From Patescibacteria group bacterium (lineage in GTDB: Bacteria > Patescibacteriota > Saccharimonadia > CAILAD01 > JADZBC01), in NCBI GenBank assembly GCA_052034495.1, contig JBPOIL010000018.1, positions 1 to 63,450 of the forward strand: a stretch of DNA of 63,450 nucleotides, given 5' to 3'. The notes beneath the pieces are model-generated. The model had not been told where the DNA came from, searched no databases, and saw nothing but the letters and a program-made list of their open reading frames with translations. The position numbers and the translations under genes are program-made. Positions 35,949 to 58,040 of the stretch are shown in pieces (position 1 is the first letter of the stretch; each line of letters begins with the position of its first letter).

Positions 35949-37454
<1,506 letters not shown>

Positions 37455-37770: not shown

Positions 37771-39630
37771 ATGGCTCAACAAAAAAACAAACAAGCATCA
37801 CGGTATCCCAAGGCGCGCACGGGTCGCTTGGGTCTTGCTGCAAAGAAAACGAATTCATTTAGCCTTAAGAAGGGGCTTATTGCTGCTGGTTTGGTTGCTA
37901 TTGTCGGTCTTGTTGCCGTGGCTTTTAGCTTCGCTGGCGGGACGCCAGATTATCAGTATTCTATAGCCGAAAAGTGTTCGGGAGACCAGGCTACGCAGTC
38001 GTGTAGAGACCTGAGTGCTGAAGCACTTATATATCGTCTCTACCTCGGGCTCTCCGGCCGCGAACCAAATGCCGGCGAGCTTTCGGAGTGGACACAAAAG
38101 CTTGCCGGCGACCGGGTTAGGCCCCAGGGCGTCATTGAGGTAGGCTTAAGGAATCCTGCATTTACCTCTTTGTCCAATAAGGCGTATGTCGAAAAGTTAT
38201 ACCAAGGTTTCTTTGGCCGTCAGGCAGACACGAATGGGCTAGACTACTGGACCAAACAGCTTGATGCAAACAAGCTTACGCGTGGAGCGGTGGCAATTCG
38301 TTTGGCACAGAGCAGCGAAGCCAAGCGCAAGGCTGCGGCTGGCCTAGATACGCTCATAGCCCAGAACGCACCTATCGTAGTACGCAAAACAGCAGCAACT
38401 CAGCAATCAGACCGTGCAACAAAAAGTGCTCGCCGACTTACAGCAAGCACCCCGAGCTATAGCCGAATAGTCGAGAAAGTTTCCGAGGCTCAAGCTCGAG
38501 AAGTTGCTGCCAGGAACGCTGCACGCAAGGATTTAAAATCTCAAAAGCCAGAAGAAATGTTAAAGAAGCTCAATGAAATTGAAGCTCATGGTCCATTCAT
38601 AGCATCCGTAATTAAGGCCATGCAGAAGGACACAAATTGGCACCGCAAGGTAGAATCAAGCTTTGCCGCTACACAAAAAGATTACTTGGCCTCAAAAGAG
38701 CTATCGGCCTATGCCGCTGACATACCTTACACGGACATAACGAAGACCTACGAGGAGGCGAAGAAGCAGAGTGATTTTTCTAAGGCGAGCTATGCAAAAA
38801 TGCTCACCAGCATTGCCAATATAGAAAAAAGCGCCCGCAGCATCGAAAAGCAATATTGGACGGTGTTAGAAAAACGAGGCCGCACATTCGCTCGATCTAA
38901 ATCGCTCCCTCTGCCTGGCCTGCCGGCGGGCATGAAGTATTGGGTTGACGACACGTATGGCGACAAGCGCGTCCATGTTCTCAAAATCGACTTAACGAAC
39001 CCGAAAGTTTCTTTAAGAGCCTCAAAGCCAGATGAACGGGGTATTACCCCCACGGATTTTGCCAAAAGGACTGGTGCAGTGGCGGCAATCAACGGAGACT
39101 TCTTTACTCCATCTCAAAGCTTCCGTGCGACAGGCCCGGCTGTCGGCCAGGGTGTAGCATGGCAGAATTCATACAACCGCAGTGACTGGTCGTACCTTGC
39201 CTGCACAAACAGCAAGTCGTGCATTATTGATCCGCAGCGCTCTACTACTCCGCCGGCAGCTAGCTATAGCACCGTTGTGGGTGGCTCTCCGGTTCTTGTG
39301 GAGCCAGGTTTTGGCTGGTATTTGAAGCCTGGTGACAACGGCTGTGCACCGTCTTGCTCCGAGCCGGCACCTCGAACCGCTGTCGGCTTAAGCGCAGACA
39401 AGAAGACCATGTGGTGGGTTATGGCCGAAGGCCGCCAAGGATCTGTTACTGGGCTTAGCCTGTATGATCTAACCGGCGTGTTCAAAAAGCTGAATGCCAA
39501 GTGGGCGGTAAACTTAGACGGTGGTGGCAGCTCGGGCATGGTGTTGAACAAGAAACTCGTTAATCGCAGACCTACTGGCGAGCAGACCGAGCGCAAGGTC
39601 GGGAATTCCCTTGGAATAATTATTCGCTAG
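37771..39630 (+). CDS. Paralog family member 1: basic N-terminus, TM, DUF4214 repeats, coiled coil, C-terminal phosphodiester glycosidase (NAGPA/DUF2233-like) domain
   Basis: Shared N-terminus (..GLVAVAFSFAGGTPDYQYS), LYLGLSGREPNAGELSEWTQKLAGDR (DUF4214-type). C-terminal AINGDFF ... NLDGGGSS. Confidence 0.75.
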   Translation: MAQQKNKQASRYPKARTGRLGLAAKKTNSFSLKKGLIAAGLVAIVGLVAVAFSFAGGTPDYQYSIAEKCSGDQATQSCRDLSAEALIYRLYLGLSGREPNAGELSEWTQKLAGDRVRPQGVIEVGLRNPAFTSLSNKAYVEKLYQGFFGRQADTNGLDYWTKQLDANKLTRGAVAIRLAQSSEAKRKAAAGLDTLIAQNAPIVVRKTAATQQSDRATKSARRLTASTPSYSRIVEKVSEAQAREVAARNAARKDLKSQKPEEMLKKLNEIEAHGPFIASVIKAMQKDTNWHRKVESSFAATQKDYLASKELSAYAADIPYTDITKTYEEAKKQSDFSKASYAKMLTSIANIEKSARSIEKQYWTVLEKRGRTFARSKSLPLPGLPAGMKYWVDDTYGDKRVHVLKIDLTNPKVSLRASKPDERGITPTDFAKRTGAVAAINGDFFTPSQSFRATGPAVGQGVAWQNSYNRSDWSYLACTNSKSCIIDPQRSTTPPAASYSTVVGGSPVLVEPGFGWYLKPGDNGCAPSCSEPAPRTAVGLSADKKTMWWVMAEGRQGSVTGLSLYDLTGVFKKLNAKWAVNLDGGGSSGMVLNKKLVNRRPTGEQTERKVGNSLGIIIR

Positions 39631-39716
39631 GGCAGAATAAGTTTGCCTTTCGGTTTTGATTGTATTATGCTTATGCTAAGTATCAATTTTTAAGGATTCT
39701 TTAAGGTAAGGAACCT

Positions 39717-41411
39717 ATGTCAGCAAAACCAACAAGCAAAAAAGCACCAGTCCGTAAAAAAACAACTTTCAAATCAAGCACAGCATCTCGGCCAAAGAGT
39801 CGAGTAGGCAGCACTCTTCTTAAGAGTAGCACTAAAAGGGCCAGTCTCTTTACTAAGCGCAATGGAATTATTGCAGGGGTAATGGCAGCTATTGCAGGCC
39901 TTGCCTTTGTGGCCCTCAGTTTTGCTGGCGGTACACCGGATTACCAGTATTCGGTAAGCGCTAAATGCGCGGGCCAACAGGCTACCCAGAGCTGTAAGGA
40001 CAAATCGGCCGAAGCCGCAGTATATAGAATGTACAAAGGCATACTTGGCTATACCCCAGACTCTGCTGGCTATGCTTTCTGGACGCAGCTGTATGCTGGT
40101 GACCGCACGCCTACGACTACGATTGTAAATAGATTCTTAGCCCAAAGCGCGCCCAAAGCCAAGTTGGGCCCGCTTACGACCAACGAACAGTTTGTAGGTT
40201 ACTTGCAAAAGAACTTTACGGGTAAAACAGCTGCCGCAACCCCCAGTAACTACTGGGTAAAACAGCTCAAAGACAAGAAGATGACCAGAAACGACGTAGC
40301 ACGTAAGTTCATATTCGTAGGGGAATCAGTCAAGTACCACCAGGCAGGCCTGAGCGCTTACTTGGCTACTGCCGCACCAGTTGCTGTTAAGCAAACTGCG
40401 CTTGACGCTCAAAACGAGCTTGCGCGTAAGGCTAAAGTATACGCCGCAGTTAGCACAAAGGAACTCGCAAGCGCAAAGGCAAAGTTCAAGATTGTTGAGG
40501 CTCGCTACAAGGCAGCTAAGAAGCTAGGCGATCAGCGTCAATCAGACGTGTCTCAGGGCGACATTACCAATGCGGAGTCTAATGCATCTGAGGCAAGCGA
40601 ATATGCAGCTCAGGTACGGATCCATTATGTACGGGCTCAAGACGCATGGAATAAGAGCAAAGTCCTAGTTGGTGAGGCCCGAAGACGAGCACAGCGTTCC
40701 CCCGACATTACTACAACGTTAGTGATTAAGAATGCTGAATCTGGTCGCAAGCCAACCGAAGAAGCTCGTCAGCTAAATAGCCAGGCGCAAACACGGGTTG
40801 GATGGGCGAACCAGTCAGTAGCTCAAGCAAAGCAGAAGTATGCGGCCGAGCAAGCCAGGTTAGCCGAAATCCGTAGACAGCAAGAGCTTGCCGCGCAGCA
40901 GGCTGCACAAGAAGGTAGTGGTGGCGGCGCCACAGGGGGAGGAAACATAACAGTCGATCTTAGTGGCGAACCTGCTGCGCCCGGCGCAGACTTGGCGGCT
41001 TTGCGGGACGAGGCGGCTAGGGCATGTGCCGCCCAGGGTGGGGGTACAGCGAGGAGGCGTGTTGCACACGGGTATGCACTTGCAAAACGAATCTATTCCT
41101 TTTCGGGGAGATTTGATAACAGCGGTGCAATCTGTGAATTTAGATATGGTTCCTTTGTTGCCGGCAGCCTTAATTGCGATGCTGGCTATAAGCAAGCTCA
41201 TAGAACCGACTTAGGGCGTGGGTGTGTTAGGGTCAACATCAGACCAACAGCTGGTAACCCATCACCTACACGATACTACTGTAAGAAGCCAAATCAACAC
41301 CGGTTCTATAAGGGCAATGGCAAGTGGGGCTATATAGGGCCATTCTTGCTCGTCACGAAAAACTCATGTGACGCACTAGGGGGCATCATTAAGTACACGA
41401 CTGCGCGTTAG
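39717..41411 (+). CDS. Paralog family member 2: basic N-terminus, TM, DUF4214 repeats, Ala/Lys coiled coil, Cys-rich C-terminal domain
   Basis: KKAPVRKKTT..SRPKSRVGS..LFTKRNGIIAGVMAAIAGLAFVALSFAGGTPDYQYS; YRMYKGILGYTPDSAGYAFWTQLYAGDR. Confidence 0.75.
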   Translation: MSAKPTSKKAPVRKKTTFKSSTASRPKSRVGSTLLKSSTKRASLFTKRNGIIAGVMAAIAGLAFVALSFAGGTPDYQYSVSAKCAGQQATQSCKDKSAEAAVYRMYKGILGYTPDSAGYAFWTQLYAGDRTPTTTIVNRFLAQSAPKAKLGPLTTNEQFVGYLQKNFTGKTAAATPSNYWVKQLKDKKMTRNDVARKFIFVGESVKYHQAGLSAYLATAAPVAVKQTALDAQNELARKAKVYAAVSTKELASAKAKFKIVEARYKAAKKLGDQRQSDVSQGDITNAESNASEASEYAAQVRIHYVRAQDAWNKSKVLVGEARRRAQRSPDITTTLVIKNAESGRKPTEEARQLNSQAQTRVGWANQSVAQAKQKYAAEQARLAEIRRQQELAAQQAAQEGSGGGATGGGNITVDLSGEPAAPGADLAALRDEAARACAAQGGGTARRRVAHGYALAKRIYSFSGRFDNSGAICEFRYGSFVAGSLNCDAGYKQAHRTDLGRGCVRVNIRPTAGNPSPTRYYCKKPNQHRFYKGNGKWGYIGPFLLVTKNSCDALGGIIKYTTAR

Positions 41412-41828: not shown

Positions 41829-41905
41829 TGGGCGATTAGCTCAGGTGGTTAGAGCGCGTCACTGATAATGACGAGGTCCCAGGTTCAAGTCCTGGATCGC
41901 CCACC
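41829..41905 (+). tRNA. tRNA-Ile(GAU): tRNA-Ile (anticodon GAU), CCA encoded
   Basis: Manual cloverleaf: GGGCGAT/ATCGCCC acceptor, GCTC/GAGC D-stem, CGTCA-CTGATAA-TGACG anticodon arm, CCAGG-TTCAAGT-CCTGG T-arm, then A-CCA. Confidence 0.95.
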
Positions 41906-42008
41906 AAGCATAAGTATTATAGATATAGGCCCCATCCGAGGGGTCTTTTCATTTCCTGCTTTCCAGGGTGTGATGTTGCTACTCTGTCCGAGCATTCAGT
42001 ACGGGTTT

Positions 42009-42635
42009 CTACCTGAGCTCAATAGGCTTTATCGGCAGTCCGGTAGCTTTTTTGCGCATACAATGAGCCACCTCGTGGATAAGGTCTAAGATATCTCCGT
42101 CGAGCATGAACTCAAATAGAACTTTTTGATCATGCAGATCGTCTGTAATCTCATACTCAACCTTATCTCCGCCTCCCCGCCATGTATCGCGAGTGTGTGC
42201 AGGGTATTCTGCCAGTCGCTTCCTGCCCCCGGTAGTGAAGTGAAACATATTCCCGTGGGCCACCCCGTTTCTTAGGTGATAGACCATTTCAAGCGCTGGG
42301 TCGTGACCGAAGTAGCCGGGGTCAAGAGCATCGGCCAAAACTATCAATGCATCGGCCATATATGCTTTCTTGAAATCGTCAAGCTTGGTTGGTACTTTTG
42401 CCAAGAAGACCTCTGGTGCGAATCCATGCTGGTCTATTGAGTTTTTTCTCTCGATAGTCGCCCATTCGTTGGAGTTTGGAAGTAGCTGAAATGCTCTCGG
42501 GTCATGGGCAACCATAAGAGATGCTAGGAGGACTGGGTAGTTACTGCTTAGGCGTTGCGCTAGCGCTTCGACACGCAGAGCAGCATCACGAGTCTCCCCA
42601 TCTTCGTATACTGGTTCGTCGTCAGTGTATTTCAT
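42009..42635 (-). CDS. Hypothetical protein with a HEPN-type Rx4H motif (possible Abi/HEPN RNase)
   Basis: 208-aa ORF. The motif YHLRNGVAHGN matches the R-x4-H HEPN signature in a predicted helical protein. It is the first gene after tRNA-Ile. Confidence 0.55.
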   Translation of the reverse strand: MKYTDDEPVYEDGETRDAALRVEALAQRLSSNYPVLLASLMVAHDPRAFQLLPNSNEWATIERKNSIDQHGFAPEVFLAKVPTKLDDFKKAYMADALIVLADALDPGYFGHDPALEMVYHLRNGVAHGNMFHFTTGGRKRLAEYPAHTRDTWRGGGDKVEYEITDDLHDQKVLFEFMLDGDILDLIHEVAHCMRKKATGLPIKPIELR

Positions 42636-42995
42636 AGGATCATTATATGCCGAGCCTTGGCCTATTGATAGCTACCCTCGTCAGCGCGATAATCCTCTAA
42701 TAAAGAGAACATCCTCATCGCAACAAGTAACACATCAAAGGACGCGAGTTCGAAGCGCAAGTCTGGACCACCGCCCGGTCGTAAGCCAGGCAGAGGTAAG
42801 GTAGTTATCAATCCCAAGCTGAAGGCAGAGCCAGACTTAGAGAAGTTCGCCACAGCCATCGTCTTTGATGTTCTAGATAAGCTCAACAAGGCTCGCTCCG
42901 ACGACTCTGAATCTAGACAGTAGGCTCGCTATATGGTATAAACATAGGGACTAAGGCGGCTATCAGCCGCTTTGTGTTTGCTCCTTGAATTGTGT

Positions 42996-43074
42996 TCTTC
43001 AGACCGGATCATTGCTCACCTCTGCTGAGTAGCGACCCGGTCTGCAAGGACTGTGGTCACAAAGGAGCCCGCCC
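42996..43074 (+). repeat. Element A, copy 1: conserved leader with a long hairpin plus GACTGTGGTC..AGGAGCCCGCC immediately before the ATG
   Basis: CAGACCGG(43000-07)/CCGGTCTG(43037-44) stem extended by about 9 further pairs. Near-identical copy at 44117-44198. Confidence 0.8.
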
Positions 43075-43989
43075 ATGAGCGAGCGAAACTGGAATGAACT
43101 GCTCGCGGCCCAACAGGCCAAGGGCAGGTTCGTCTGCGTTGGCCTCGACAGCGACGTCGACAGCCCGAAGTTCCCCACCCATCTCGCCGACAAGCGGTTC
43201 TCGAACAGCCAGTTCGCGTTCAACCAGTCGATCGTCGACGCGACCAAGGACATCGCGGGCTGCTACAAGCCGAACCTCGCGTTCTACCGCGGTGACGCCG
43301 GCAAGCGGTCGCTGCAGCGGATCATCCAGTACATCAATCGGGTGGCTCCGACCGTCCCGGTCATCCTCGACGCCAAGTGGGGCGACATCGGCAACACCAA
43401 CGACGGCTACGTCGCGGACCTCGGTGAGTTCTACGGCGCCGACGCGGTCACCGTCCACAACTACATGGGGATGGAGGCGATGAAGCCGTTCCTCGACCAG
43501 GGGAACAAGGGCATCATCGTGCTGTGCCGTACCTCCAACCCTGGTTCGGACGAGATGCAGTCGATCCTCGTCCAGGCATGGACTCAGGAGGAGGGGGAGG
43601 TCCTTTACCCGCAGCGCGAGGAGGTTCCGGGTGGGCCCGTTCACTCGGTGCTCGTTCCCAACTACCAGTACGTCGCCAATCGCGTGGCGAACCAGTGGAA
43701 CATCAACGGGAACTGCGCCCTCGTGGTCGGCGCGACCTACGCCGACGTCGAGCTGGCCATCGTGCGGGAGATCGTCGGCGACATGCCGATCCTCCTCCCT
43801 GGCATCGGCGCTCAGGGCGGTGACCTCGAGGCGACCATCGACAACGGTCGCAACTCGCAGGGTCAGGGCATGATCGTCAACAGCTCGCGCGGGATCATCT
43901 TCGCCTCCAGCGATCATGACTTCGCTCAGCGAGCTGGCGAGGAGGCGGCCAAGCTGCACGGAGCCATCACGGCTCGGCTCGCTGCCTGA
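43075..43989 (+). CDS. pyrF: Orotidine-5'-phosphate decarboxylase, type 2 (actinobacterial-type), high GC
   Basis: FVCVGLDSD, ILDAKWGDIGNT and LPGIGAQGG motifs. Third codon positions are almost all G/C. Two hand-counted 60-nt lines gave 60 % and 67 % GC. Confidence 0.85.
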   Translation: MSERNWNELLAAQQAKGRFVCVGLDSDVDSPKFPTHLADKRFSNSQFAFNQSIVDATKDIAGCYKPNLAFYRGDAGKRSLQRIIQYINRVAPTVPVILDAKWGDIGNTNDGYVADLGEFYGADAVTVHNYMGMEAMKPFLDQGNKGIIVLCRTSNPGSDEMQSILVQAWTQEEGEVLYPQREEVPGGPVHSVLVPNYQYVANRVANQWNINGNCALVVGATYADVELAIVREIVGDMPILLPGIGAQGGDLEATIDNGRNSQGQGMIVNSSRGIIFASSDHDFAQRAGEEAAKLHGAITARLAA

Positions 43990-44100
43990 CGGCACACCAC
44001 AAGCAAGGAGCTCTGTGCCAGCTCCGGGATGAACTCCCGGGGCTGGCCACTGCCACGAGTCACTCAGCAATTGAGTGGTTCATGGCAGTGAAAGCACTGC
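43987..44100 (+). repeat. Element B, copy 1: roughly 110-nt three-hairpin element directly after the cassette stop codon
   Basis: Hairpins GGCACA/TGTGCC, CCAGCTCCGGGA/TCCCGGGGCTGG (12 bp) and CACTGCCACGAGTCACTCA/TGAGTGGTTCATGGCAGTG (19 positions). Second copy at 44876-44990. Confidence 0.8.
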
Positions 44101-44116
44101 ATCGCTCTTTACATAC

Positions 44117-44198
44117 ATTTCAGACCGGATCGTTGCACGCTTCTAAGTAGGCGACGACCCGGTCTGAAGAAGACTGTGGTCCCAATTAGGAGCCCGCC
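44117..44198 (+). repeat. Element A, copy 2
   Basis: CAGACCGG(44121-28)/CCGGTCTG(44159-66), then GACTGTGGTCCCAATTAGGAGCCCGCC-ATG. Confidence 0.8.
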
Positions 44199-44615
44199 AT
44201 GTGTGCGAGCGAGACGGTAGGTGTAGTCCCGGTCCGCGTTCGCTACGCGGTCTGGTTCGGGCCCGAAGAGTCGGACATCTTCGACTGCGAGGTCGGGCGC
44301 AAGGCACCCGATGAGTTCGTCCTGGATCCAGCGGCGGACTACTTCCAGTTCTACGACCGCATGGTCGTCGATCTCGAAGTGGAGGAAAGAGGAACCCTCC
44401 GGCTTGTCAGCCCGCGGCTCAACGAGTCGCCGTACTACGTCCCGGGTGGGCTCATCCTCGAGGGAGAGGAGCGTGCTGCTGCCTTCGCGCCCGGTGGGCC
44501 CTTGGCCAACATCGGCTCACGGGAGGATGACATCGTCGTTCGGTCTCGTTACCGAACCCTCTGCTTCGGTGCACAGACCGGAGTGGTCGTTCTTCCGGCT
44601 CCGCCAACCCAATGA
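44199..44615 (+). CDS. High-GC hypothetical protein (138 aa)
   Basis: GC3-rich frame, AGGAG 8 nt upstream, and an ATGA overlap with the next ORF. Confidence 0.65.
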   Translation: MCASETVGVVPVRVRYAVWFGPEESDIFDCEVGRKAPDEFVLDPAADYFQFYDRMVVDLEVEERGTLRLVSPRLNESPYYVPGGLILEGEERAAAFAPGGPLANIGSREDDIVVRSRYRTLCFGAQTGVVVLPAPPTQ

Positions 44616-44878
44616 GTGCGGCTGCCAAGTTGCCCCGCAAGCCCTTCTTCTGCGGGCTGGGCCTTCACAGCTGGTTCATCGACAGGGCAATGCTCACTCG
44701 TGCGAAGCAGTGCCGCCGCTGCGAGGTCTACAAGGATGAGCAGGCCGGCCGGCGGCTTGAGTTCGAGCGCGAGGTTCGAGCATGGGCAGCCACCAGCTTT
44801 CCTTCCGAGGCGGCAGACGAACTCGTTCGGCTCAACCTCAGGGGCTGGGACGTCCTTCAGGTCATGCACAGCGCTTGA
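44612..44878 (+). CDS. High-GC hypothetical small protein with a CxxxxH...CxxC zinc-ribbon-like segment (88 aa)
   Basis: GC3-rich frame, translationally coupled (4-nt overlap) to the upstream ORF. FFCGLGLHSW...CRRCEVY. Confidence 0.6.
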   Translation: MSAAAKLPRKPFFCGLGLHSWFIDRAMLTRAKQCRRCEVYKDEQAGRRLEFEREVRAWAATSFPSEAADELVRLNLRGWDVLQVMHSA

Positions 44879-44990
44879 CGGCATACCACAACGCAAGGAG
44901 CTCTGTGCCAGTTCCGGGATCCGTCCCGGGGCTGGCCATTGCCACGAGTCACTCAATAGATGAGTGGTTCATGGCAGTGAGAACTGCAGT
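44876..44990 (+). repeat. Element B, copy 2
   Basis: Same three hairpins as copy 1. The three stem substitutions I compared (one per hairpin) are C-to-T opposite G, keeping G-U pairs on the + strand. The loop sequences differ. Confidence 0.8.
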
Positions 44991-45040
44991 TCCTTAACTT
45001 GGCCTAATCCCAGGCCCCTACAAAGAAAAGGGGGCCTGAG

Positions 45041-45430
45041 ATGGCTTCTGTTCTGTCCCTCCTGCTCGCCACCTTGGTGGTCGGCACGATCTACAACTTC
45101 GTCGACGTAGCCGTCGACAGAGACAGGCCCTTCCGGCCAGTCCATGCCATGCTGGAAAACCCCCTCATGTGGGCCGCTTCCTACGGCATCGCGCTCGTGG
45201 CTGGAGCGGTGGCCTTGCTGCTGAACGTCAGCCTCGATCCGTGGCTCACGCTGTTCATCGTGGGGGTCGTGTCCTTCATCATCGCAACGCTCCTCATCCT
45301 CACCGACAAGACGGTCAAGAACAAGGCGAAGGAGTTCCGCAACTGCTTCGTCGGCTTGGTCTCCTTCGCCCTGGTGTCCGGTTGCACCGCTGCCGGCACC
45401 CTCTGGCTGCTCAGCCTGAGCGGGAGCTGA
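45041..45430 (+). CDS. High-GC integral membrane protein (4 TM, 129 aa)
   Basis: GC3-rich frame and hydrophobic segments. Confidence 0.65.
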   Translation: MASVLSLLLATLVVGTIYNFVDVAVDRDRPFRPVHAMLENPLMWAASYGIALVAGAVALLLNVSLDPWLTLFIVGVVSFIIATLLILTDKTVKNKAKEFRNCFVGLVSFALVSGCTAAGTLWLLSLSGS

Positions 45431-45434
45431 CGTC

Positions 45435-45767
45435 ATGAACATCAACGACTACGAGGCCATTGCCGCTGATCCGGCACTGGTGGAGAAGATCCGGTTCGGA
45501 ACCTTCTATGCCATGGGCAGGTCCAAGGATCCTCGCTTCGTCGCGAAGTGGGCCGAGGTACCAGAGGCGGAGAAGGCTGCGGCTGGTGTCGTCGGCCTCG
45601 AGGCCCTTCGGTCTCTGGTAGACGACTACACGACTCCTGGTTGCAGGTGCAAGTACTGCACCTGGAAGGGCGAGTCGACCCACGGGCGACTGATCATGTG
45701 CACGCAGCGGTGGGACCGACTCTCCCCAGAGGAGCGTCGCACGATCGGTGAGTCGTGCGCCGACTGA
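45435..45767 (+). CDS. High-GC hypothetical Cys-containing protein (110 aa)
   Basis: GC3-rich frame 4 nt after the upstream stop. CRCKYC..C motif. Confidence 0.6.
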   Translation: MNINDYEAIAADPALVEKIRFGTFYAMGRSKDPRFVAKWAEVPEAEKAAAGVVGLEALRSLVDDYTTPGCRCKYCTWKGESTHGRLIMCTQRWDRLSPEERRTIGESCAD

Positions 45768-45810
45768 CAGCAAGCACTACCCGAACCCCCGTGGTTCGGT
45801 TGGGCACCAA

Positions 45811-45857
45811 GGCCCACGGAGAGACTTACGTCCCGCCCGTGGGCCTCTTCAGTTTTT
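45811..45857 (+). terminator. GC-rich intrinsic terminator closing the high-GC array
   Basis: GGCCCACGG-N17-CCGTGGGCC followed by TCTTCAGTTTTT. Confidence 0.65.
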
Positions 45858-45902
45858 GGGCTTAGCTACGTCTAAGAATGCAAGTTTTGTTATAATAGGC
45901 GG

Positions 45903-46490
45903 ATGAAGAGCCTTAACGATCTCGCGGAAATCTATGAGCGGACACTTGTCTTGCCAAAGGTTAAGCCTGAGCCGCAGTTTTACCTTGTCTCGGTTGGGCT
46001 AATGGGTTCAGGTAAGAGCACCGTGCTGAAGAGGCTTTCTGAAATGCTAGGCCTGGTACGGATATGTGGCGATGATATTAGGAAAGTGGTTTTTGAGAAT
46101 GAAGGGAACGAGGAGGATACCTGGGAGATTGGAAGACGAGTCGTTGAGAAGTATGTAGCTCAGGGGTATAGTATCGCCCATGACACAGACGGCGCAACCG
46201 CTAAGACACAAGCCGCGATTGCTAAGCAAGCGCAAGAGTATGGCGTTAAGACCGTCTGGGTCCACGTCAACCCGCCAGAGAGTTTTATACTGGCGAACCT
46301 GGATCGGCCTAAGCCGAAGTGGCTTTTTGAGAGCCAAGAAGCGGCTAGAGCAAAATATCTAGAGCGCAAGAAGCTTCATGAGAACCTCGATATCCAGTTT
46401 GCATTTGAGTTTGATCCATCGAGATCAGACTTCGAACTACAGATAGAACAGGCAGCAGCTGGGATACAGGGCCTTCTTCTCGCCCAATAG
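45903..46490 (+). CDS. P-loop NTPase/kinase (AAA_33 / zeta-toxin-like fold)
   Basis: Walker A GLMGSGKST. About 195 aa, typical of small nucleotide or polynucleotide kinases. Backbone-like GC. Confidence 0.6.
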   Translation: MKSLNDLAEIYERTLVLPKVKPEPQFYLVSVGLMGSGKSTVLKRLSEMLGLVRICGDDIRKVVFENEGNEEDTWEIGRRVVEKYVAQGYSIAHDTDGATAKTQAAIAKQAQEYGVKTVWVHVNPPESFILANLDRPKPKWLFESQEAARAKYLERKKLHENLDIQFAFEFDPSRSDFELQIEQAAAGIQGLLLAQ

Positions 46491-46512
46491 TCAGAGGCTC
46501 GGGCCTCTTTCG

Positions 46513-46947
46513 TTACTTTGGCGGCCAACCTCGGCGAGGTCGAAGGGTAACGTTAGCCCTCAGGAAGCGCTTACGAACGGTAGAAGCATCCAGGCCATAC
46601 TGTTGACCTATAACAGATAGCGAGTTACCATTGTTGTAGGCACGAATAGCAGCTGCCAAGGTCTGCTCATCCCATTTGAGGGATTCTCCGACAGTTGGCA
46701 CTCCTCTTCGTCTGAGGTGATTCATCACCGTGGTTCGTCCGACTCCAAAGGTCGATGCGAGCTCGAGGATGGAAGCACCCGCCAATCGGGCATCTAGTAA
46801 GTCATCGACCTCACTCTCAGTGAGGCGTACTTGTGCCTGACGAGGCCCACGGGGCCGTCGGGTAGAGATCAAGCGCTCAGACACCTGGTCAACAACCACA
46901 AGCGGTATTGACAAGGGGTTTGAGAGCTGTCCTAGTAGGTCCACCAT
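46513..46947 (-). CDS. DNA-binding protein with two resolvase/Hin-type HTH modules and no catalytic recombinase domain
   Basis: LTESEVDDLLDARLAGASILELASTFGVGRTTVMNHLRR and SLSVIGQQYGLDASTVRKRFLR. The track ORF start (47004) overlaps tRNA-Ala, so the internal ATG at 46947 is preferred. Confidence 0.55.
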   Translation of the reverse strand: MVDLLGQLSNPLSIPLVVVDQVSERLISTRRPRGPRQAQVRLTESEVDDLLDARLAGASILELASTFGVGRTTVMNHLRRRGVPTVGESLKWDEQTLAAAIRAYNNGNSLSVIGQQYGLDASTVRKRFLRANVTLRPRRGWPPK

Positions 46948-46997: not shown

Positions 46998-47074
46998 GGG
47001 GCATTAGCTCAGCTGGTTAGAGCGCCTGCTTTGCAAGCAGGAGGTCGTCGGTTCGACTCCGACATGCTCCACCA
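46998..47074 (+). tRNA. tRNA-Ala(UGC): tRNA-Ala (anticodon UGC), G3-U70 present, CCA encoded
   Basis: GGGGCAT/ATGCTCC acceptor (G3-U70), CCTGC-TTTGCAA-GCAGG anticodon arm, GTCGG-TTCGACT-CCGAC T-arm. Confidence 0.95.
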
Positions 47075-51330: not shown

Positions 51331-52326
51331 ATGGCAGTAAACAAAAAAGCACCTGTACGCAAAAACACTACGAAAACCAGATCTAATGTCGGCGGCTCAT
51401 CTCTGGGCAAAAAGACCACTCTGTTTAGTAAGCGCAACGGTCTCATCGTGGCAGGGCTAGCAGCGATTGTAGGCCTCGTGTTTGTGGCTTTTAGTTTTGC
51501 TAGCGGCCCTTCTATGGGCGCATACCAGTACTCTTTGAATAATTGTAAAATGCTTCGAGCAAGCGGCACTACTGGCAAACTTTTGCCACAGACTAAACAA
51601 ACACAGAATTGTATAAATAAGTCTGCCGAATCTGCAGTGTATAGGACGTACATAGGAGTCCTCGGTAGAACCCCAGACATCAGTGGATACCAGTACTGGA
51701 CGCAAAAGTTGGCCGGAGACAAGGTTGCATCAACTTTGGTCGTTAGAAGCTTCTTAAGCTCGAGCCAGGTCAAGAATAAACTTGCGCCACTGAAGACGAA
51801 CGAAGAATTCGTGGCTTATTTGGCGAAGAACTTCCAGGGTAAAACTACTTTGACTAGTTATGACAAATACTGGTTGAAGCGACTAGATAACAAAAAGAAA
51901 ACACGAAGTGAGGTAATCCGCCAGTACATCTTTGCTAAAGAGACAGTTGCCTACCAACAGGCCGGCTTTGATTTATTCCTCGAAGACGCGCCTAGAGTAA
52001 GTGTGGTTGTCTATGCAAAGAAGGGCGAGTACGCCAACCCGACTGCTACCCCAACCTGCGAAGCGGGCTACAGCCTCATAACCAACAAGATCAAAGAAAC
52101 TTCACGATACGCTGGCGGTGCTATAAGTAGCTATGGTTGCGGCCGCGCTGCCGCCAGTAAGCCAGACTTAGACGAAAACGGAGAATTACGGAACGTTACT
52201 CCTAAGCTTGCTTGCCCAGCGGGCTATAAATCTACAGCTGTACGCGGCAACGGCACGAGGTTCTATGACTCCACCACCGGTGGCTACTACCCATCTAGCA
52301 CTAATGTGGCCTGCAAGAAGTCCTAG
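51331..52326 (+). CDS. Paralog family member 3 (short): basic N-terminus, TM, DUF4214 repeats, Cys-rich C-terminus
   Basis: KKAPVRKNTT..LFSKRNGLIVAGLAAIVGLVFVAFSFASG; YRTYIGVLGRTPDISGYQYWTQKLAGDK. Confidence 0.75.
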   Translation: MAVNKKAPVRKNTTKTRSNVGGSSLGKKTTLFSKRNGLIVAGLAAIVGLVFVAFSFASGPSMGAYQYSLNNCKMLRASGTTGKLLPQTKQTQNCINKSAESAVYRTYIGVLGRTPDISGYQYWTQKLAGDKVASTLVVRSFLSSSQVKNKLAPLKTNEEFVAYLAKNFQGKTTLTSYDKYWLKRLDNKKKTRSEVIRQYIFAKETVAYQQAGFDLFLEDAPRVSVVVYAKKGEYANPTATPTCEAGYSLITNKIKETSRYAGGAISSYGCGRAAASKPDLDENGELRNVTPKLACPAGYKSTAVRGNGTRFYDSTTGGYYPSSTNVACKKS

Positions 52327-52399
52327 GGCTTGCAATCCTAATACGACTATATTATGCTTATGCTAAGTTATATAAATTTAAGCTAACTATAAGGTATAC

Positions 52400-54178
52400 A
52401 TGGCCACATCAAACAAAAAAGCACCCGTTCGAAAATCAAATACTCGCTACGCAAGTAGTTCTAAATCATCTCGACCCAAGTCTCGCACTGGCAGCTCCAG
52501 CCTGGCTCGTAGCTCCAAGAGCACCATCTTCACCAAGCGCAACGGTATTATAGCTGCCGGCATGGCTGCTGTTGCTGGACTCGCCTTCGTAGCCTTCAGC
52601 TTCGCGAGCGGAGCGCCCAAGACCCCCGACTATCAGTATTCTTTTAGTAAAGCCTGTATACCTACTGGTACTACTACGGGTTCTGCAGGAACCCCTGCGC
52701 CCACAGACGCCGAACAGCTCAAGGCTCAGCAGGACTGCTATGACAAGAGTGCCGAGGGACTCGTTTACCGTGTATACAAAGGGGTTTTTAACCGCGAGCC
52801 GAATGCTGGTGAATACGCCTACTGGGTTCAGCAGCTCGCTGGAGATCGCGTCCAGGGCACTACCTTTGTAAGCAAAATGATTGCTAGCAATGGCGCGGTT
52901 GTCCCAAAGACCGCCACAGACGCACAGTTTGTGAACGGACTATACAAGAACATGCTATTACGCACCGATGCAGGAATTACGGCCGACAAAAAAGGTACCG
53001 ACTATTGGGCCAAAAAGATGCAAGGCGCAAAGAAGTGGTCCCGTGCAAAAGTTGCCTATCACTTTGCTACTACCAATGAAGCTAAGCGTGCTAACGCTAC
53101 GACCTTCGTTGCATACATTAGCGCAGCAACTCCTGTGGTGATTAAGGAAAATGCCAAGGAAGCGCAAGCCGCTCGACTTGTCCAAATGAAAAAGTACGCG
53201 ACGACAGCTGGTACGAACGCCACAGCTGCCAAAAGGGCTGAGAATGCCGCCAAGTCTGCGTTAGGAACTGCCAAAGCCAGCTCTAGCTTAGAAGCAATTG
53301 CCGCAAACAAGGCAACGGCAGCCGCTGAGGCTGCGAAGGCACGAACTGCCATGCGTGCCGCCAAGACTGCGGCCGGCAAAGCCGACCGGCTCAAGAAAAG
53401 GGCTCGATCACTAGCAGTTTATGCTAAAGACATTGGCGCCGACCCAGTGTATGGCATGGCCAAGATTAACGATGTGCATAAGCTGACTAAGGCATATAGT
53501 ACTAATGCATCAAAGTCTGCAAGTACTGCCGGAAAGACTCTAGCGCAGATTGACGCTGCTTATGCAGCTCGTCGGGCGAAGATAGCAGAAGAAGCAGCAG
53601 CCGCAGCTGCAGCAGCGGAGAGAGCTAATAATTCTGGAGCGGGGAATATCCCAACCGGCGATCCTAACAAAACTCCGCCTCCGCCTCCGCCAGGTGCGAC
53701 CGTGGAACAAGTAGATGCTATCTGGAAAAGCCACTGTAATTCTAAAGCAAACTTCTTGAGTAGTGAGGCAAACTTGACGGGGGGAATAGGTAAGTACGCA
53801 TATATTATTGACTCTTCTTATACGGACGACGGCAAACACCGTAGGAGTTGCACGGAAACTCCAAAAGGGATTAGGGTGACTTCATGCACAAGGTCGTACG
53901 AAGCAAATGCTGATAGAACGCAATGTGTGCTAATTACGCGCGCAAATAATACCCCGGCTTCTCCTTACTGCAAGGGTAAGAACGTTAATAAACAATACTG
54001 GGATTATCACTACAAGGCTGTCGCTAACGCTGAAACTAATCATGCAATTAAGAAACGTACAGCAGTTTGTGATGCCAGAGGCAATATTACATATGGCCAA
54101 TGGAGTAAGTATATTCCAATTAGCTACAATACGTATAAAAACAATAAGCCCAAGTATGAAGATGGGATATTTAAGTAG
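52400..54178 (+). CDS. Paralog family member 4: basic N-terminus, TM, DUF4214 repeats, Ala-rich coiled coil, Cys-rich C-terminus
   Basis: KKAPVRKSNTRYASS..SRPKSRTGS..IFTKRNGIIAAGMAAVAGLAFVAFSFASG..PDYQYS. Confidence 0.75.
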   Translation: MATSNKKAPVRKSNTRYASSSKSSRPKSRTGSSSLARSSKSTIFTKRNGIIAAGMAAVAGLAFVAFSFASGAPKTPDYQYSFSKACIPTGTTTGSAGTPAPTDAEQLKAQQDCYDKSAEGLVYRVYKGVFNREPNAGEYAYWVQQLAGDRVQGTTFVSKMIASNGAVVPKTATDAQFVNGLYKNMLLRTDAGITADKKGTDYWAKKMQGAKKWSRAKVAYHFATTNEAKRANATTFVAYISAATPVVIKENAKEAQAARLVQMKKYATTAGTNATAAKRAENAAKSALGTAKASSSLEAIAANKATAAAEAAKARTAMRAAKTAAGKADRLKKRARSLAVYAKDIGADPVYGMAKINDVHKLTKAYSTNASKSASTAGKTLAQIDAAYAARRAKIAEEAAAAAAAAERANNSGAGNIPTGDPNKTPPPPPPGATVEQVDAIWKSHCNSKANFLSSEANLTGGIGKYAYIIDSSYTDDGKHRRSCTETPKGIRVTSCTRSYEANADRTQCVLITRANNTPASPYCKGKNVNKQYWDYHYKAVANAETNHAIKKRTAVCDARGNITYGQWSKYIPISYNTYKNNKPKYEDGIFK

Positions 54179-54369
54179 CTAGAATCAGGAATATTGTGCA
54201 CGAAATTACAGGCGAGATAGCTGCTAAAGGTTAGTGGATCACACAGTTCTGCACAGTTGCTAAACATTTTGACATACAATGACTGGATATAAGCTGGGCA
54301 AACTTAGGATGGATAGCATGTAGGTACACTAACTGTTTGTGCGTAACAATGAGTAGATTGTAGCGGCGG

Positions 54370-54615
54370 CTATACGAATAACAGCAAGAGCAGGCTAATT
54401 AGCATTACAAGTAGTGATATAGTTAACATTATCCCAGCCATGTCCCAGCTCCATGCCGGAGCGCTAAACTTATATATGTATTGAGTCTTATCCACCTGCA
54501 CAGGGGCGGGAGCTGTTTGGCCAGGGGTAGAGTTCGCCGCGATGTAGTTGGCTACACAGTCACTGAGTCGAATGTTCTCTAAAAGGTTCGGATAAGTGGC
54601 ATGAGCTGCCAACAT
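54370..54615 (-). pseudogene. Truncated copy of the 56615..57151 membrane-protein gene (C-terminal third only)
   Basis: 81-aa ORF whose residues SDCVANYIAANSTPGQTAPAPVQVDKTQYIYKFSAPAWSW align with the C-terminus of the 178-aa paralog. Near-identical DNA at 54520-54560 and 56770-56810. Confidence 0.55.
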
Positions 54616-54680
54616 TGCATTTAGTCGATAAACTAGTTATGCTTGTGTAAGCCTTATAAATTTAGCGACGCGAAGTATAC

Positions 54681-56426
54681 ATGGCCACAATAAACAAAAA
54701 GCCCTCTGTCCGAAAAACAAATACTCGTTACGTGAGTAACCCCAAATCATCCCGTGCCAAATCCCGCACTGGCCCTTTGGGGCTTGCTCGCAATACCAGG
54801 CTAACACTCTTTACTAAACGTTATAGTCTCATAGCCGCAGGTATGGCTGCTATTGCTGGCCTTGCTTTCGTAGCCCTCAGCTTCGCTGGCGGTACGCCAG
54901 ACTATCAGTACTCATTAAGCGAGAAGTGCGTAACTACACCACCAGTTGCAGTTGATCCCGCAGTAGGTGCGAACCCCACGCCCGCCTCCACAACTAACAC
55001 CCCCCAGACTTGTAAAGATTTAAGTGCAGAAGGTATGGTTTATAGACTCTATAGAGGCCTACTAGGCCGTAATCCCGACCCGGCGGGATACCAGTACTGG
55101 ACTCAGAAGCTAGCCGGAGACAGAATCAATGCCGGGGAAGTAATCAGGCAAATGGGCGGCGCTAAAATGATTACAGGAACAGACGACGCCTTTATTTCAG
55201 CCTTATATACGAATATGATGGCCCGCCCGGCCGATGCTAGAGGCAAGGCGTACTGGCTTAAGAACATGAAGAATAAAAAGAAATGGTCACGCCAAAGAGT
55301 TGTTCTTCACTTTGTGTCAACTCGCGAAGCCAAGAGAAAGAACCAGGCCGGCTTCAACACCTTCCTTGCAAGTGCATCTCCCGTAAAGATAACTCAGAAA
55401 GCTGCTGCAGAACAAAAGAAGCGCTACGAAGCAATCGTTGCATACACGAAGGCTCAAGGCAAGAACGCTGAAGCCGCGCGCAAAAATGCTTTAGCAGCAC
55501 AAAATGCCCTAAATGCAGCTAAATCTAATGCTTCTGGAGGCATTGGCCGTGAAAGACTTGCAGCTATTGCCGCCAATCAAAAAACAGCAGAGGGTGAATA
55601 TAATAAAGCTAAAGCAAATGCACGCACGACGGAGAGTATTAAAAAAATCGCGATTGCATTAAAGAATCAGTCGGATAGTTTATACAAACATGCAACCGAT
55701 ATCAAGGACGATCCTAAATATGGTAAGAATAAATTTGATGCCAACTATAAATTACTCGTAGCATTGGATAAGAATGCGGATAAAGCTGTTGCAGCCGCAA
55801 GGCAACGCATTACAGACGTTGCTGCGCAGTACGAGATTGCAGAGGCCAAGTATGAGGCTGAACAAAATAGGCTAGCGACAGAAGCAGCCGCAAGACGAGC
55901 AGCTGAACAGAGTACTAGCAACCAGGGTGGCGGGGGTAATGGAGCGACAAGTGAGGCTTGTCCTCCCGGGCAACAAAGGAATTCCAACGGCACGTGCTAC
56001 AGCCCTACTCCTCGAGAACCTAGATGTGATTCCACCAAAAGGACCACCCAAAAGATAGAAGGCAATGGCATTAGGACTATAACTACTTGGCAGTCCGTAA
56101 AACCTGATAAGAGTGGATGTTTTGACAATTCCATAAATAACTGGCAGAAGCTTACTGGTGTCTCCGGTGGCGCTAAAAAGGCACGTAAAAACCAATGTTA
56201 CTCTAGCAGGAATCTCACTGATGAGAGGCATAAATGGAAGTGGATAAGAGTTACTACAGATCTTGGTATAGGTAAAATTACCGCTCCACAGTATTCCAAC
56301 GTCAGACAGACGAGAACAGGTAGATGGTCGTGGAATGACAGCGGGAATGGTACCTGCACAAATGTATGGGGCCCCTGGATAGATCACTGGAAGGCATCAA
56401 GTGGTAGTGGTGAACTGGCTAAATAA
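54681..56426 (+). CDS. Paralog family member 5: basic N-terminus, TM, DUF4214 repeats, coiled coil, Cys/Trp-rich C-terminus
   Basis: KKPSVRKTNTRYVSN..SRAKSRTGP..LFTKRYSLIAAGMAAIAGLAFVALSFAGGTPDYQYS. Confidence 0.75.
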   Translation: MATINKKPSVRKTNTRYVSNPKSSRAKSRTGPLGLARNTRLTLFTKRYSLIAAGMAAIAGLAFVALSFAGGTPDYQYSLSEKCVTTPPVAVDPAVGANPTPASTTNTPQTCKDLSAEGMVYRLYRGLLGRNPDPAGYQYWTQKLAGDRINAGEVIRQMGGAKMITGTDDAFISALYTNMMARPADARGKAYWLKNMKNKKKWSRQRVVLHFVSTREAKRKNQAGFNTFLASASPVKITQKAAAEQKKRYEAIVAYTKAQGKNAEAARKNALAAQNALNAAKSNASGGIGRERLAAIAANQKTAEGEYNKAKANARTTESIKKIAIALKNQSDSLYKHATDIKDDPKYGKNKFDANYKLLVALDKNADKAVAAARQRITDVAAQYEIAEAKYEAEQNRLATEAAARRAAEQSTSNQGGGGNGATSEACPPGQQRNSNGTCYSPTPREPRCDSTKRTTQKIEGNGIRTITTWQSVKPDKSGCFDNSINNWQKLTGVSGGAKKARKNQCYSSRNLTDERHKWKWIRVTTDLGIGKITAPQYSNVRQTRTGRWSWNDSGNGTCTNVWGPWIDHWKASSGSGELAK

Positions 56427-57233: not shown

Positions 57234-57491
57234 ATAATACAAAAGAGAAGGGGCCGAGCATGATCGCTCGGCCCCGCACTCGTCGTTGAGTGTCCTCTCG
57301 TCTTGAGCGCTACTCCTCGGCACCCTTGTCACGTGCTGGCGGCAGGTCCTTCAGTCCCGTTCCCCTTGGCAGATCCACCGGAGGCGCGTTGCGCTTGATG
57401 CCCGAAGGTCCCCTGCGGTCTGCGACAGCCGATGGGTCGTCGCCGCGAGCCTGGTGGTCCGGACGGCAGTCAGGTGGGTGAGCCTTGCGGC

Positions 57492-57608
57492 TCACCGTTG
57501 GCCGAATGCGCGTCGAGGGTGCTGACGGGCCTTGGCTTCATCAGCCCGTCGCTTCTTCTCCTTCTTGCTCAGCTTCTTGGCTGGACCCTTCTTGACCAGG
57601 CCGCTCAT
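57492..57608 (-). CDS. High-GC Lys/Arg-rich micro-ORF (38 aa), translationally coupled (TGATG)
   Basis: Hand translation gives MSGLVKKGPAKKLSKKEKKRRADEAKARQHPRRAFGQR. It is followed by the hairpin GGTGAGCC-gcaa-GGCTCACC. It is below the ORF-track size cut-off. Confidence 0.3.
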   Translation of the reverse strand: MSGLVKKGPAKKLSKKEKKRRADEAKARQHPRRAFGQR

Positions 57609-57931
57609 CAGCGCTTGCCACCCTTCTTCCCGCCCTTGCGCTCGGCTCGACGGGCTTTGCCGCTGAGCTTCGGCCCGCTCTGGCGACCCTTGTCGGGCTG
57701 GACCTGGCCTCCGAAACTGGCTTGTTGTCCGCCACCACCCTTGCCACCACCCTTGGAGGTGATGGCATGCATGGTCTGCGGCGGACTGACTGCTCCGGTG
57801 ACAGCTTTGGGCCGGCTGTGGCTGTTGAGAGGCGTTGGCGTCCCGCTGAAGCGGTCGACCTCGTCCTCGTCATCGAACAGTGGTCGCCCGCCTCGCATGT
57901 CACGCCTGAGCGCTGACTCTCTCGTTGCCAT
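57608..57931 (-). CDS. High-GC hypothetical Gly/Lys-rich basic protein (107 aa)
   Basis: The best GC3-rich frame among several overlapping ORFs. Starts at an ATG. The stop overlaps the next small ORF. Confidence 0.45.
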   Translation of the reverse strand: MATRESALRRDMRGGRPLFDDEDEVDRFSGTPTPLNSHSRPKAVTGAVSPPQTMHAITSKGGGKGGGGQQASFGGQVQPDKGRQSGPKLSGKARRAERKGGKKGGKR

Positions 57932-58040
57932 TGTGTGATGAGCTCCCCTTTGGCGCTGTGGCCAAGTTGACGATAGGTAGTGATTATTCTACGCTCGAAA
58001 CGAAAAATGTCAAGGTTAATCCATTTGTTATAATGGTGAT

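Follow-up and report, generated by a model that had tools for sequence, protein, structure and literature searches.

Genes and composition of the array

The window, that is the whole 63,450-nucleotide stretch of DNA analysed from a Patescibacteria group bacterium, carries at positions 42930-45857 of its + strand an array of five ORFs set among structured repeats and lying between tRNA-Ile and tRNA-Ala. The first ORF (43075-43989) codes for a 304-aa PyrF-like OMP decarboxylase; this assignment, made in a preliminary description of the locus, is supported by Pfam (PF00215 OMPdecase, 3e-23), and the best relatives of the protein are from CPR/Saccharibacteria. The 138-aa product of the following ORF (44199-44615) has no known domain, no Pfam or PHROG match and just 9 relatives among 1.84 billion representative proteins; its AlphaFold2 model (pLDDT 88) has a mostly beta fold with no match in the PDB. 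An ORF encoding a Cys-containing polypeptide of 88 aa (44612-44878) overlaps the preceding stop by 4 nt, gives no Pfam match and has a 118-aa homologue in the related array L003. The 129-aa product of ORF 45041-45430 is a predicted membrane protein (MAS..L family) whose family is present in most arrays, and the 110-aa product of ORF 45435-45767 has conserved Cys residues (VDDYTTPGCxCxYC...C), 11 homologues and a helical AlphaFold2 model (pLDDT 89) with no PDB match. Across arrays the cargo comprises pyrF and at least 10 unrelated families without known domain. Among the neighbouring genes, the kinase is a P-loop AAA_33/Zeta-like protein and the ORF described as HEPN-like has an RNGVAH (Rx4H) motif and no Pfam match.

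The array has 60-64% GC with GC3 saturation in a genome of about 50% GC. The 1-kb bins spanning 43001-46000 have GC fractions of 0.641, 0.613 and 0.602, while almost every other bin lies at about 0.45-0.54, and GC3 is 0.73-0.89 in the five array ORFs (0.89 in pyrF, 0.88 in the membrane-protein ORF) versus 0.48-0.60 in native genes. The high-GC segment between lower-GC neighbours is real and not an assembly chimera: a 5.2-kb Logan contig, 100% identical, covers both array junctions, and the junctions to native DNA recur in two other samples (L002, L023). The actinobacterial or phage origin that had been envisaged is not supported: pyrF has its nearest relatives in CPR/Saccharibacteria, and searches for phage, plasmid and viral matches found none.

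Structured elements punctuating the array

The modular arrangement of ORFs and structured repeats proposed in the preliminary description, with two copies each of elements A and B, is confirmed. Arrays have a fixed syntax, namely P, an A or A'+C leader, ORF(s), repeated units of B, A or A'C leader and ORF(s), and finally T, where P is a putative promoter with a 5' hairpin and T a canonical terminator. Element P (42930-42975) holds an extended -10-like box TGGTATAAA (42934-42942), a small hairpin (42955-42971) proposed as a 5' cap that would sit near the transcript 5' end, and a T-rich tail. Alignment reveals P conserved at the array starts of L002, L023, L003 (twice), L024 and L027 (twice), and the conserved TGGTATAAA box occurs at array starts only. 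In L002 and L023 a divergent tRNA lies upstream of the array, so a promoter must lie at P, which we infer to be the array promoter.

Element A1 (42998-43074) is composed of a hairpin (43000-43044), the conserved motif GACTGTGGT (43049-43057) and the Shine-Dalgarno (SD) sequence AGGAG (43063-43067), and precedes the pyrF ATG. A2 (44119-44198; hairpin 44121-44165) is 83% identical to A1 and places the same motif and an SD ahead of the 138-aa ORF. A folds as one long hairpin of 17 covariation-analysed pairs, with 97% of cells paired and compensatory change in 4 pairs. The 63-kb window has no further A copy, and A is not unique to this locus: about 20 A/A' copies are found on 7 contigs, all in ORF sense and only in high-GC arrays.

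Element B is a very stable structure that comes immediately past stop codons. B1 (44013-44110) comprises hairpin 2 (44017-44047), hairpin 3 (44048-44090) and a conserved 3' tail (..ACTGC..) without U-tract, and B2 (44903-45000) comprises the corresponding hairpins at 44907-44936 and 44937-44979; the two are 89% identical (43987-44093 versus 44876-44982). With filters off, covariance model R1 scores them at 92.3 and 87.6 bits, while the next + strand match in the window reaches only 13.6 bits and there is no further copy. B folds as a 13-bp plus an 18-bp hairpin (z = -3.3 to -5.2), with a symmetric internal mismatch in the stems and without extrahelical bases. Of the three hairpins originally drawn, only these two are conserved, the first being weak and confined to the window-type sub-family. 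The sub-families differ in hairpin 3 (window-type versus L003-type) and in hairpin-2 variants; the hairpin-2 loop varies in sequence and in length, from about 3 to 8 nt. B is likewise not restricted to this locus: its 25 copies are spread over 10 independent contigs from a single small clade, all 25 in ORF sense orientation and only within high-GC arrays. Covariation extends over 29-30 pairs, with 99% of cells paired and 10-11 pairs changed on both sides; none of 500 shuffles reaches the observed level and slid controls are 27-42% paired. Compensatory changes maintain the structure even where the cargo of the copies is down to 73% identity, and both A and B display the compensatory substitutions across diverged copies that mark conserved cis-regulatory RNAs. 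B was considered as a Rho-independent terminator and rejected: 1 T is found in the 8 nt after the B1 stem, and 22 copies have 1-3 T within 8 nt after hairpin 3, that is, no U-tract.

The pairing pattern indicates which strand folds. Read on the sense strand, G.U cells outnumber A.C cells 55:5 in B and 32:2 in A, counts that could be somewhat inflated by strand-biased C-to-T mutation and by the shared ancestry of copies, and this excess marks the sense strand as the folding one, the simplest case being an mRNA. Single-sequence folding energies of the B1-A2 junction (-104 versus -107 kcal/mol for the two strands) do not separate them, so the strand call rests on the comparative wobble counts. 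Selection on a folded single strand, initially argued from three C-to-T stem changes opposite G between B1 and B2, is upheld by the covariation and the wobble bias, although supported stems contain just two of these changes (alignment columns 15/36 and 44/85) and the third falls outside any conserved stem. The linker AACTGCACGCACCTTGAGACA and the GACTGTGGT motif are more conserved than the hairpins need, a pattern that would imply a specific partner, protein or RNA.

The third module, described as a two-gene unit closed by a GC-rich terminator, does have this organisation, to which two features are added. It is preceded by a leader (45000-45040) made of a degenerate A' remnant, GGCCTAATCCCAGGCC, and a hairpin C in which CAGGCCCC (45011-45018) pairs with GGGGCCTG (45031-45038); folding predicts that C encloses the SD of the membrane-protein ORF. 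The same A'+C leader stands ahead of membrane-protein ORFs in L002, L023, L003, L024, L027 and L028. The terminator itself belongs to a repeated family, T (45768-45857), with a small hairpin followed by an intrinsic terminator in which GGCCCACGG (45811-45819) pairs with CCGTGGGCC (45837-45845) ahead of a T-run. Seven T copies were aligned, five of them at array ends (L002, L003 twice, L024, L027), and all seven have a GC-rich hairpin with U-tract (45811-45857 in the window; 4-6 T in the next 8 nt). Array genes have long structured leaders and AGGAG; native genes, in contrast, appear to lack leaders. Only rRNA and tRNA pass the gathering threshold of Rfam 15 over the window, the best sub-threshold hits within 42850-45950 reaching 15-21 bits (E 0.4-3.7).

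Strain variability and search for mobile element functions

Content and order of arrays vary between strains, a positive outcome for the strain comparison proposed in the preliminary description. Module 2 is absent from L002 and L023, with the switch point in B, at its 5' edge; the arrays of L003, L024 and L027 have other cargo in another order; and L005 carries a lone high-GC A-pyrF-B unit between two native genes at an unrelated locus, where no flanking homology is visible. Strain differences consist of whole modules and of swapped alleles. The membrane-ORF allele is swapped relative to L002 (41-74% identity between flanks 97-99% identical) and pyrF of L023 is a patchwork with blocks of 34-96% identity. 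Some breakpoints also interrupt pyrF and the membrane ORF themselves, and others fall at repeat-free junctions, for example after the membrane ORF, whose downstream genes differ between L002 and L023. Since they occur inside genes, general homologous recombination fits better than site-specific cassette exchange. Hairpin-2 variants seem to travel with the upstream ORF and hairpin 3 with the downstream one (L003 1091-1638 versus L027m 4316-4873).

No recombinase is found near the array. Window ORFs scanned against Pfam over the 63 kb include no integrase, transposase or RAYT (no Y1_Tnp match), and the precomputed Pfam annotations of L003, L023, L024, L027, L028 and L034 contain none of these and no other recombinase family. 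The tyrosine or serine recombinase that was to be sought is absent from both sets, and neither intI nor Phage_integrase is present beside the array, in scanned window ORFs or in array-contig annotations. The absence of GTTRRRY cores noticed earlier extends to 22 B and 11 A copies (0/22 and 0/11), and no paired R''/R' cores are found. RYYYAAC occurs by chance in one B copy. A tRNA-targeted integrative island (ICE, prophage or tycheposon-like) was also considered and is not supported: there is no integrase, and the long direct repeats are only the A copies, the B copies and the two tRNAs themselves.

A proposed RNA-punctuated accessory operon and its alternatives

We privilege, with moderate confidence, the hypothesis that the array belongs to a type of hypervariable accessory operon, punctuated by RNA elements that act in cis and reshuffled through homologous recombination, in a small Saccharibacteria-like (CPR) clade. 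The array would probably be transcribed as a polycistronic mRNA from the native-type promoter P to the canonical terminator T, within which A and B would act as cis-acting RNA structures. B consists of two very stable tandem hairpins just past the stop codon, without U-tract; in A, GACUGUGGU and a strong SD come after a long hairpin. The B-A junction (about 190 nt) most likely serves to set cistrons apart within the RNA, through processing or stabilisation: B could block exonucleases at the 3' side or act as a partial stop, endonuclease cleavage would occur in the conserved single-stranded B-A linker, and the cistron downstream would receive from A both a 5' hairpin that protects it and a defined site for translation to begin. 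At the DNA level, the conserved junctions and leaders would serve as homology stretches through which homologous recombination, plausibly following natural transformation, would insert, remove or exchange modules and alleles. The lone unit of L005 tells against this hypothesis, since homologous recombination by itself could hardly produce it, and so does the conservation of the linker AACTGCACGCACCTTGAGACA and the GACTGTGGT motif beyond what hairpins need.

Functionally, the B-A junction appears most to resemble the RNase III sites between phage T7 early genes and the puf/mal intercistronic stem-loops, conserved hairpin families between cistrons of one transcript that leave each processed mRNA with protective terminal stems. 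The analogy is functional only: the sequences show no similarity, and the array sits in the chromosome of a CPR bacterium. Minimal mobile elements of Neisseria and phage morons offer a parallel for the shuffling, with different genes per slot between conserved flanks, exchanged by homologous recombination after transformation; here, however, the conserved flanks are structured intergenic elements, several slots are chained per array, and no phage context is found.

The L005 unit, of deviant GC amid native genes in the fashion of a moron, also suits the view that each module is an independent transcription unit, A and B being ordinary imported promoter-leader and terminator signals. B would then be a U-tract-less terminator, a common kind in high-GC bacteria, in keeping with its stability and position past stop codons, and a promoter would lie in the B-A linker or in A, where a -35-like TTGA(A/G/C)A is found 10-12 nt upstream of A. 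We consider this improbable. No acceptable -10 box follows the TTGA motif at 16-18 nt in any B-A junction or A-upstream flank inspected, a scan reveals none in the window's array, and a start there would fall within the A hairpin, yet both A arms covary as RNA. Array ends carry a distinct element with U-tract, T, and some B-to-ORF spacers lack A altogether and span only about 25-60 nt (L003 676, 1186, 4288).

The likeness to integron arrays, sedentary chromosomal integrons and CALINs (attC clusters lacking integrase) is wider: ORFs in tandem without promoters of their own, a structured imperfect palindrome after each ORF, repeats alike within an array, a single upstream promoter, strain-variable content and cargo mostly of unknown function with a composition foreign to the host genome. 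Membership in the integron family is nevertheless not supported, as the array has neither IntI nor R''/R' (RYYYAAC/GTTRRRY) cores, B consists of two distinct hairpins where attC is one bulged stem, and there are a second element, A, with leader and SD, and a dedicated end terminator. Where integrons fold the bottom strand with extrahelical bases, the array shows sense-strand wobble and a symmetric internal mismatch. A new DNA-level cassette system, with B or the B-A junction as an attC-like recombination site folded in ssDNA and a recombinase encoded elsewhere for site-specific capture, excision and reinsertion, could explain the switch point at the B 5' edge, the apparent linkage of hairpin variants to neighbouring ORFs and the L005 unit; the 13-nt inverted arms of hairpin 2 around a short spacer recall lox, FRT and dif sites. 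It seems quite improbable to us, with no candidate recombinase or Y1 transposase in the window or on array contigs, a hairpin-2 loop unlike a fixed crossover region, a wobble bias marking the sense strand and breakpoints not confined to repeats.

Enterobacterial REP/BIME, pneumococcal BOX and neisserial Correia/NIME elements are, like A and B, repeated extragenic palindromes between operon genes; transcribed and folded in mRNA, they stabilise upstream mRNA segments and are recombination substrates. The hosts of BOX, Correia and NIME elements are naturally transformable, as are Saccharibacteria (PMC10633639). Those repeats lie scattered across hundreds of sites, in either orientation, and RAYT transposases are associated with REPs, whereas A and B are confined to one array type. 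REP palindromes have about 35-40 nt; A (about 80 nt) and B (about 70 nt) are longer. The REP/BIME membership suggested at the outset is not supported, since no RAYT is found among the scanned window ORFs and no dispersal is seen: the window has 2 B and 2 A copies, all in the array, and none is found in its other 60 kb or in the native parts of L003, L005, L024, L027 and L028. That A and B are selfish intergenic repeats of MITE, REP/BIME, BOX or Correia type that invaded a horizontally acquired operon, with no host role, is very unlikely, even though sub-families exist. Their strictly sense orientation, their fixed position relative to stop codons, SD and ATG, the maintenance of structure across diverged copies and the absence of terminal inverted repeats and target duplications all speak against it.

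To our knowledge, next to nothing is known of gene-expression control or accessory-gene gain in CPR/Saccharibacteria. The analysis yields two new covariation-supported RNA motifs, with leader, proposed promoter and terminator families, which together would make up a reusable grammar for expressing foreign-looking genes in genomes with apparently leaderless native genes. It also points to a recombination hot spot that adjoins split rRNA/tRNA genes and differs in content between close strains. Elements that insulate or stabilise cistrons would be useful parts for new Saccharibacteria genetic systems. Were they recombination sites, they would represent a cassette-capture mechanism outside the integron paradigm. 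It is quite improbable that the B-A junction is the recombination site of a previously undescribed CPR gene-cassette system, integrase-less or with its recombinase encoded elsewhere. Such a site may act on folded sense-strand ssDNA, for example DNA entering in natural transformation; pyrF and many genes of unknown function would be captured and chained behind one promoter, and L005 would illustrate how a single A-ORF-B unit could be dropped elsewhere in a genome. In that reading the GC3 saturation, extreme in all cargo and left without account by the model of RNA elements and homologous recombination, would be a by-product of incessant recombination through GC-biased gene conversion. The saturation could also serve as a clean natural test of such conversion in bacteria.

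Composition and genomic setting of the array

The window appears to come from a CPR/Saccharibacteria genome of ~50% GC, judging by its proteins, whose closest relatives carry the names Saccharibacteria, Saccharimonadales or other CPR. The rRNA operon is interrupted, ~23 kb filled with protein-coding genes separating the 16S rRNA gene (35949-37453) from the 23S rRNA gene (60224-63450, with its start at 60224), and the spacer tRNAs, tRNA-Ile (41830-41906) and tRNA-Ala (46998-47074), lie 5 kb apart with the array between them. The 23S match spreads model positions 1-2188 across 3.2 kb, indicating that the gene carries an insertion. A LAGLIDADG endonuclease ORF is found within the 23S region (62720-63205).

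The array (42930-45857) has a GC content of 0.60-0.64 (three 1-kb bins covering 43001-46000), and GC3 is 0.73-0.89 in its five ORFs versus 0.48-0.60 in native genes, those outside the array. GC3 saturation extends to all cargo and is kept across copies diverged to 73-78% identity, while GC1 and GC2 are near native values despite it. The closest outside relative checked (contigs L025/L026, 61% amino acid identity) has an ordinary GC content of about 0.5. The segment is not an assembly chimera, a risk raised in the preliminary description: an independent Logan contig is 100% identical across 5.2 kb including both junctions, and contigs of other samples show these elements next to the same native neighbours.

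The pyrF product (304 aa), an OMP decarboxylase, is most closely related to CPR proteins, so that an actinobacterial host origin was rejected. The other array ORFs belong to at least 10 unrelated families with very few homologues and gave no Pfam or PHROG match. Two cargo proteins have confident AlphaFold2 models (pLDDT 88-89) for which Foldseek found no fold match in the PDB; they are likely to be genuine proteins of unknown function.

A family of structured elements

A1 and A2, the leader elements preceding ORFs, are 83% identical, and B1 and B2, which follow stop codons, are 89% identical; with the base composition, these values confirm the initial picture of a high-GC array carrying two repeated elements. 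A folds as one long hairpin and B as hairpins of 13 and 18 bp, all well below shuffled controls. The further, first hairpin initially attributed to B proved weak and lineage-specific. In the 63-kb window a covariance model of B run with filters off finds two copies only (92 and 88 bits), the next plus-strand match scoring 13.6 bits.

When public assemblies were searched for relatives of pyrF and of the 110-aa protein, arrays were recovered on contigs L002, L003/L004, L005, L023, L024, L027, L028, L034 and L036. With nhmmer and the covariance model, B was found 25 times, on 10 contigs, and A or its variant A' about 20 times, on 7 contigs; every copy points in the same direction as the ORFs and lies within a high-GC stretch. 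L027 has at least 10 small ORFs separated by seven B and eight A copies. A and B are a family and not a local duplication. They are lacking in the more distant cargo relatives, in genomes of about 37-52% GC (L025, L031, L033, L037). Pattern scans beyond these contigs, Actinomycetota included as envisaged in the preliminary description, yielded chance palindromes only. When 185,579 species-representative genomes and IMG/VR were scanned for hairpin 2 of B, the matches came from Actinomycetota and other high-GC genomes as isolated GC-rich palindromes; not one was accompanied by the rest of B, and all were dismissed as chance. A scan with the A-hairpin pattern gave four matches in JGI metagenomes and none in IMG/VR, with no real A; the contigs in question are evidently missing from both collections, which makes the absence weakly informative. 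Rfam has no family for the elements at gathering or relaxed thresholds, and no description of such arrays was found in the literature.

Alignments define five non-coding families. P opens arrays with TGGTATAAA and a small hairpin; A, the array leader, is a hairpin followed by GACTGTGGT and then AGGAG; A'+C stands before a recurrent membrane-protein gene, the C hairpin enclosing the SD of that gene; B follows ORFs; and T, a canonical terminator, closes arrays. The order in the window is P, A1, pyrF, B1, A2, the 138-aa and 88-aa ORFs, B2, an A' remnant with C, the 129-aa (membrane) and 110-aa (Cys) ORFs, and T. The 8 nt after the last stem contain 1-3 T residues in B versus 4-6 in the terminator.

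Folding strand and expression signals

The 29-30 pairs of B are 99% paired across 14-22 copies, slid controls being 27-42% paired, and 10-11 of them have changes on both sides; the 17 pairs of A are 97% paired with four compensatory, and these covariation counts are to be read as non-independent events because the copies share ancestry. The covariation observed in B was reached by none of 500 shuffles. Several hairpin-2 variants and two hairpin-3 subfamilies each retain pairing through double changes. G.U cells exceed A.C cells by 55 to 5 in B and 32 to 2 in A, an excess that would leave the antisense strand mismatched. Covariation and G.U excess together bear out the early proposal of selection on a folded single strand and, on this comparative evidence, the structure of A and B is under selection on the sense strand. 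Single-sequence folding energies are alike for both strands and do not separate them, so the assignment of the strand is comparative. A closing helix P1 around both B hairpins was rejected as a general feature, being confined to the window-type subfamily.

In most native genes a TATAAT box precedes the ATG by only 5-8 nt, as upstream of the ORF starts at 9979, 13878, 20719, 42635 (minus strand), 45903, 57151 (minus strand) and 58041, a spacing that suggests leaderless mRNAs. Array genes are in sharp contrast, with structured, SD-bearing leaders of 75-150 nt. In the listed B-A junctions and A-upstream flanks, the -35-like TTGA motif was not seen to be followed by a -10 box at a distance of 16-18 nt, and promoters within the B-A linker were rejected for this reason. 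As an alternative, the 3' arm (GCAGTG) of hairpin 3 can pair with a conserved (C)ACTGC downstream that repeats the 5' arm sequence (44085-44105), and likewise at the equivalent position after most B copies (L003, L024, L027); this pairing could act as a conformational switch. The remaining linker (..CGCACCTTGAGACA..) is also conserved and has no obvious pairing partner; the conservation of the linker and of GACTGTGGT implies some factor that recognises them.

Reshuffling of modules and possible roles

The comparison of strains showed, as the modular reading had anticipated, that array content differs. In L002 and L023, P-A-pyrF-B leads straight into module 3 (in the window, the membrane and 110-aa ORFs), and the one B present resembles B1 as far as ACCAC and B2 from there on. 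The window and L002 are 97-100% identical throughout except in the body of the membrane ORF (41-74%). In L023, pyrF is made up of a patchwork of blocks with 34-96% identity, its flanking A and B are nearly identical, and a different gene lies downstream of the membrane ORF. L003, L024 and L027 have other cargo in other orders. L005 has a lone A-pyrF-B unit (9850-11090; 0.64 GC in a 0.48 GC contig) flanked by an SNase gene on one side and the promoter of a thioredoxin-reductase (TrxR) gene on the other, with a degenerate, AT-rich P and no T after it.

We favour, with moderate confidence, the hypothesis that A and B act in cis as mRNA structures that punctuate a polycistronic accessory operon, its junctions doubling as recombination homology. 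B would serve as a barrier or processing element on the 3' side and A as a 5' stabiliser and translation-initiation module, and recombination through the conserved junctions would reshuffle the modules, which fits well since breakpoints lie inside genes. The mRNA reading is also the simplest account. Both the notion that the modules are independent moron-like units, which we consider unlikely, and that of A and B as selfish repeats, which appears very improbable, fit more poorly than the cis-acting mRNA account.

A true site-specific cassette system is likewise doubtful, even with the lone L005 unit, the hairpin-2/hairpin-3 linkage pattern and a sequence conservation exceeding pairing needs in its favour. 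Unlike integrons, which are characterized by an integrase and GTTRRRY/RYYYAAC cores, the arrays have neither: Pfam scans of the window ORFs and precomputed Pfam annotations of the array contigs revealed no integrase, serine recombinase, transposase or RAYT, and no such cores occur in the elements, so that the initial statement on integrase and GTTRRRY cores in the window stands. There are no att-like direct repeats of tRNA ends. A phage link, also contemplated at the outset, found no backing when the entire island was compared by blastn with 50,697 phage records; the B-A junction has no match in 72,556 plasmids, and viral contigs searched with the pyrF, 110-aa and 138-aa proteins gave no relatives.

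Around the array, L002 is devoid of the HEPN-like ORF (RNGVAH motif, no Pfam match), a small upstream ORF, the zeta-toxin-like P-loop kinase and an HTH protein (window 41907-42930 and 45858-46940), and its tRNA-Ala and tRNA-Ile genes are adjacent and inverted, indicating that the whole inter-tRNA region is a rearrangement hot spot. Three more small high-GC islets lie on the minus strand (~57240-57940, ~58790-59100 and 59180-59900), with basic low-complexity ORFs and a 222-aa ORF (GC3 0.79). Each has its own GC-rich hairpin terminator and none of the three has A, B or T; the islet position in syntenic L003 and L034 holds an ADK-domain ORF, with a partial match to L003 at the DNA level. Five paralogous DUF4214-domain proteins are encoded at 37771-41411 and 51331-56426, several of their genes having a TATGCTTATGCTAA-like motif upstream. 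Type IV secretion is represented by an 842-aa ORF at 26874-29402 that matches the coupling protein of the VirD4/TraG type, in keeping with the conjugation-like machinery that has been described for Patescibacteria.
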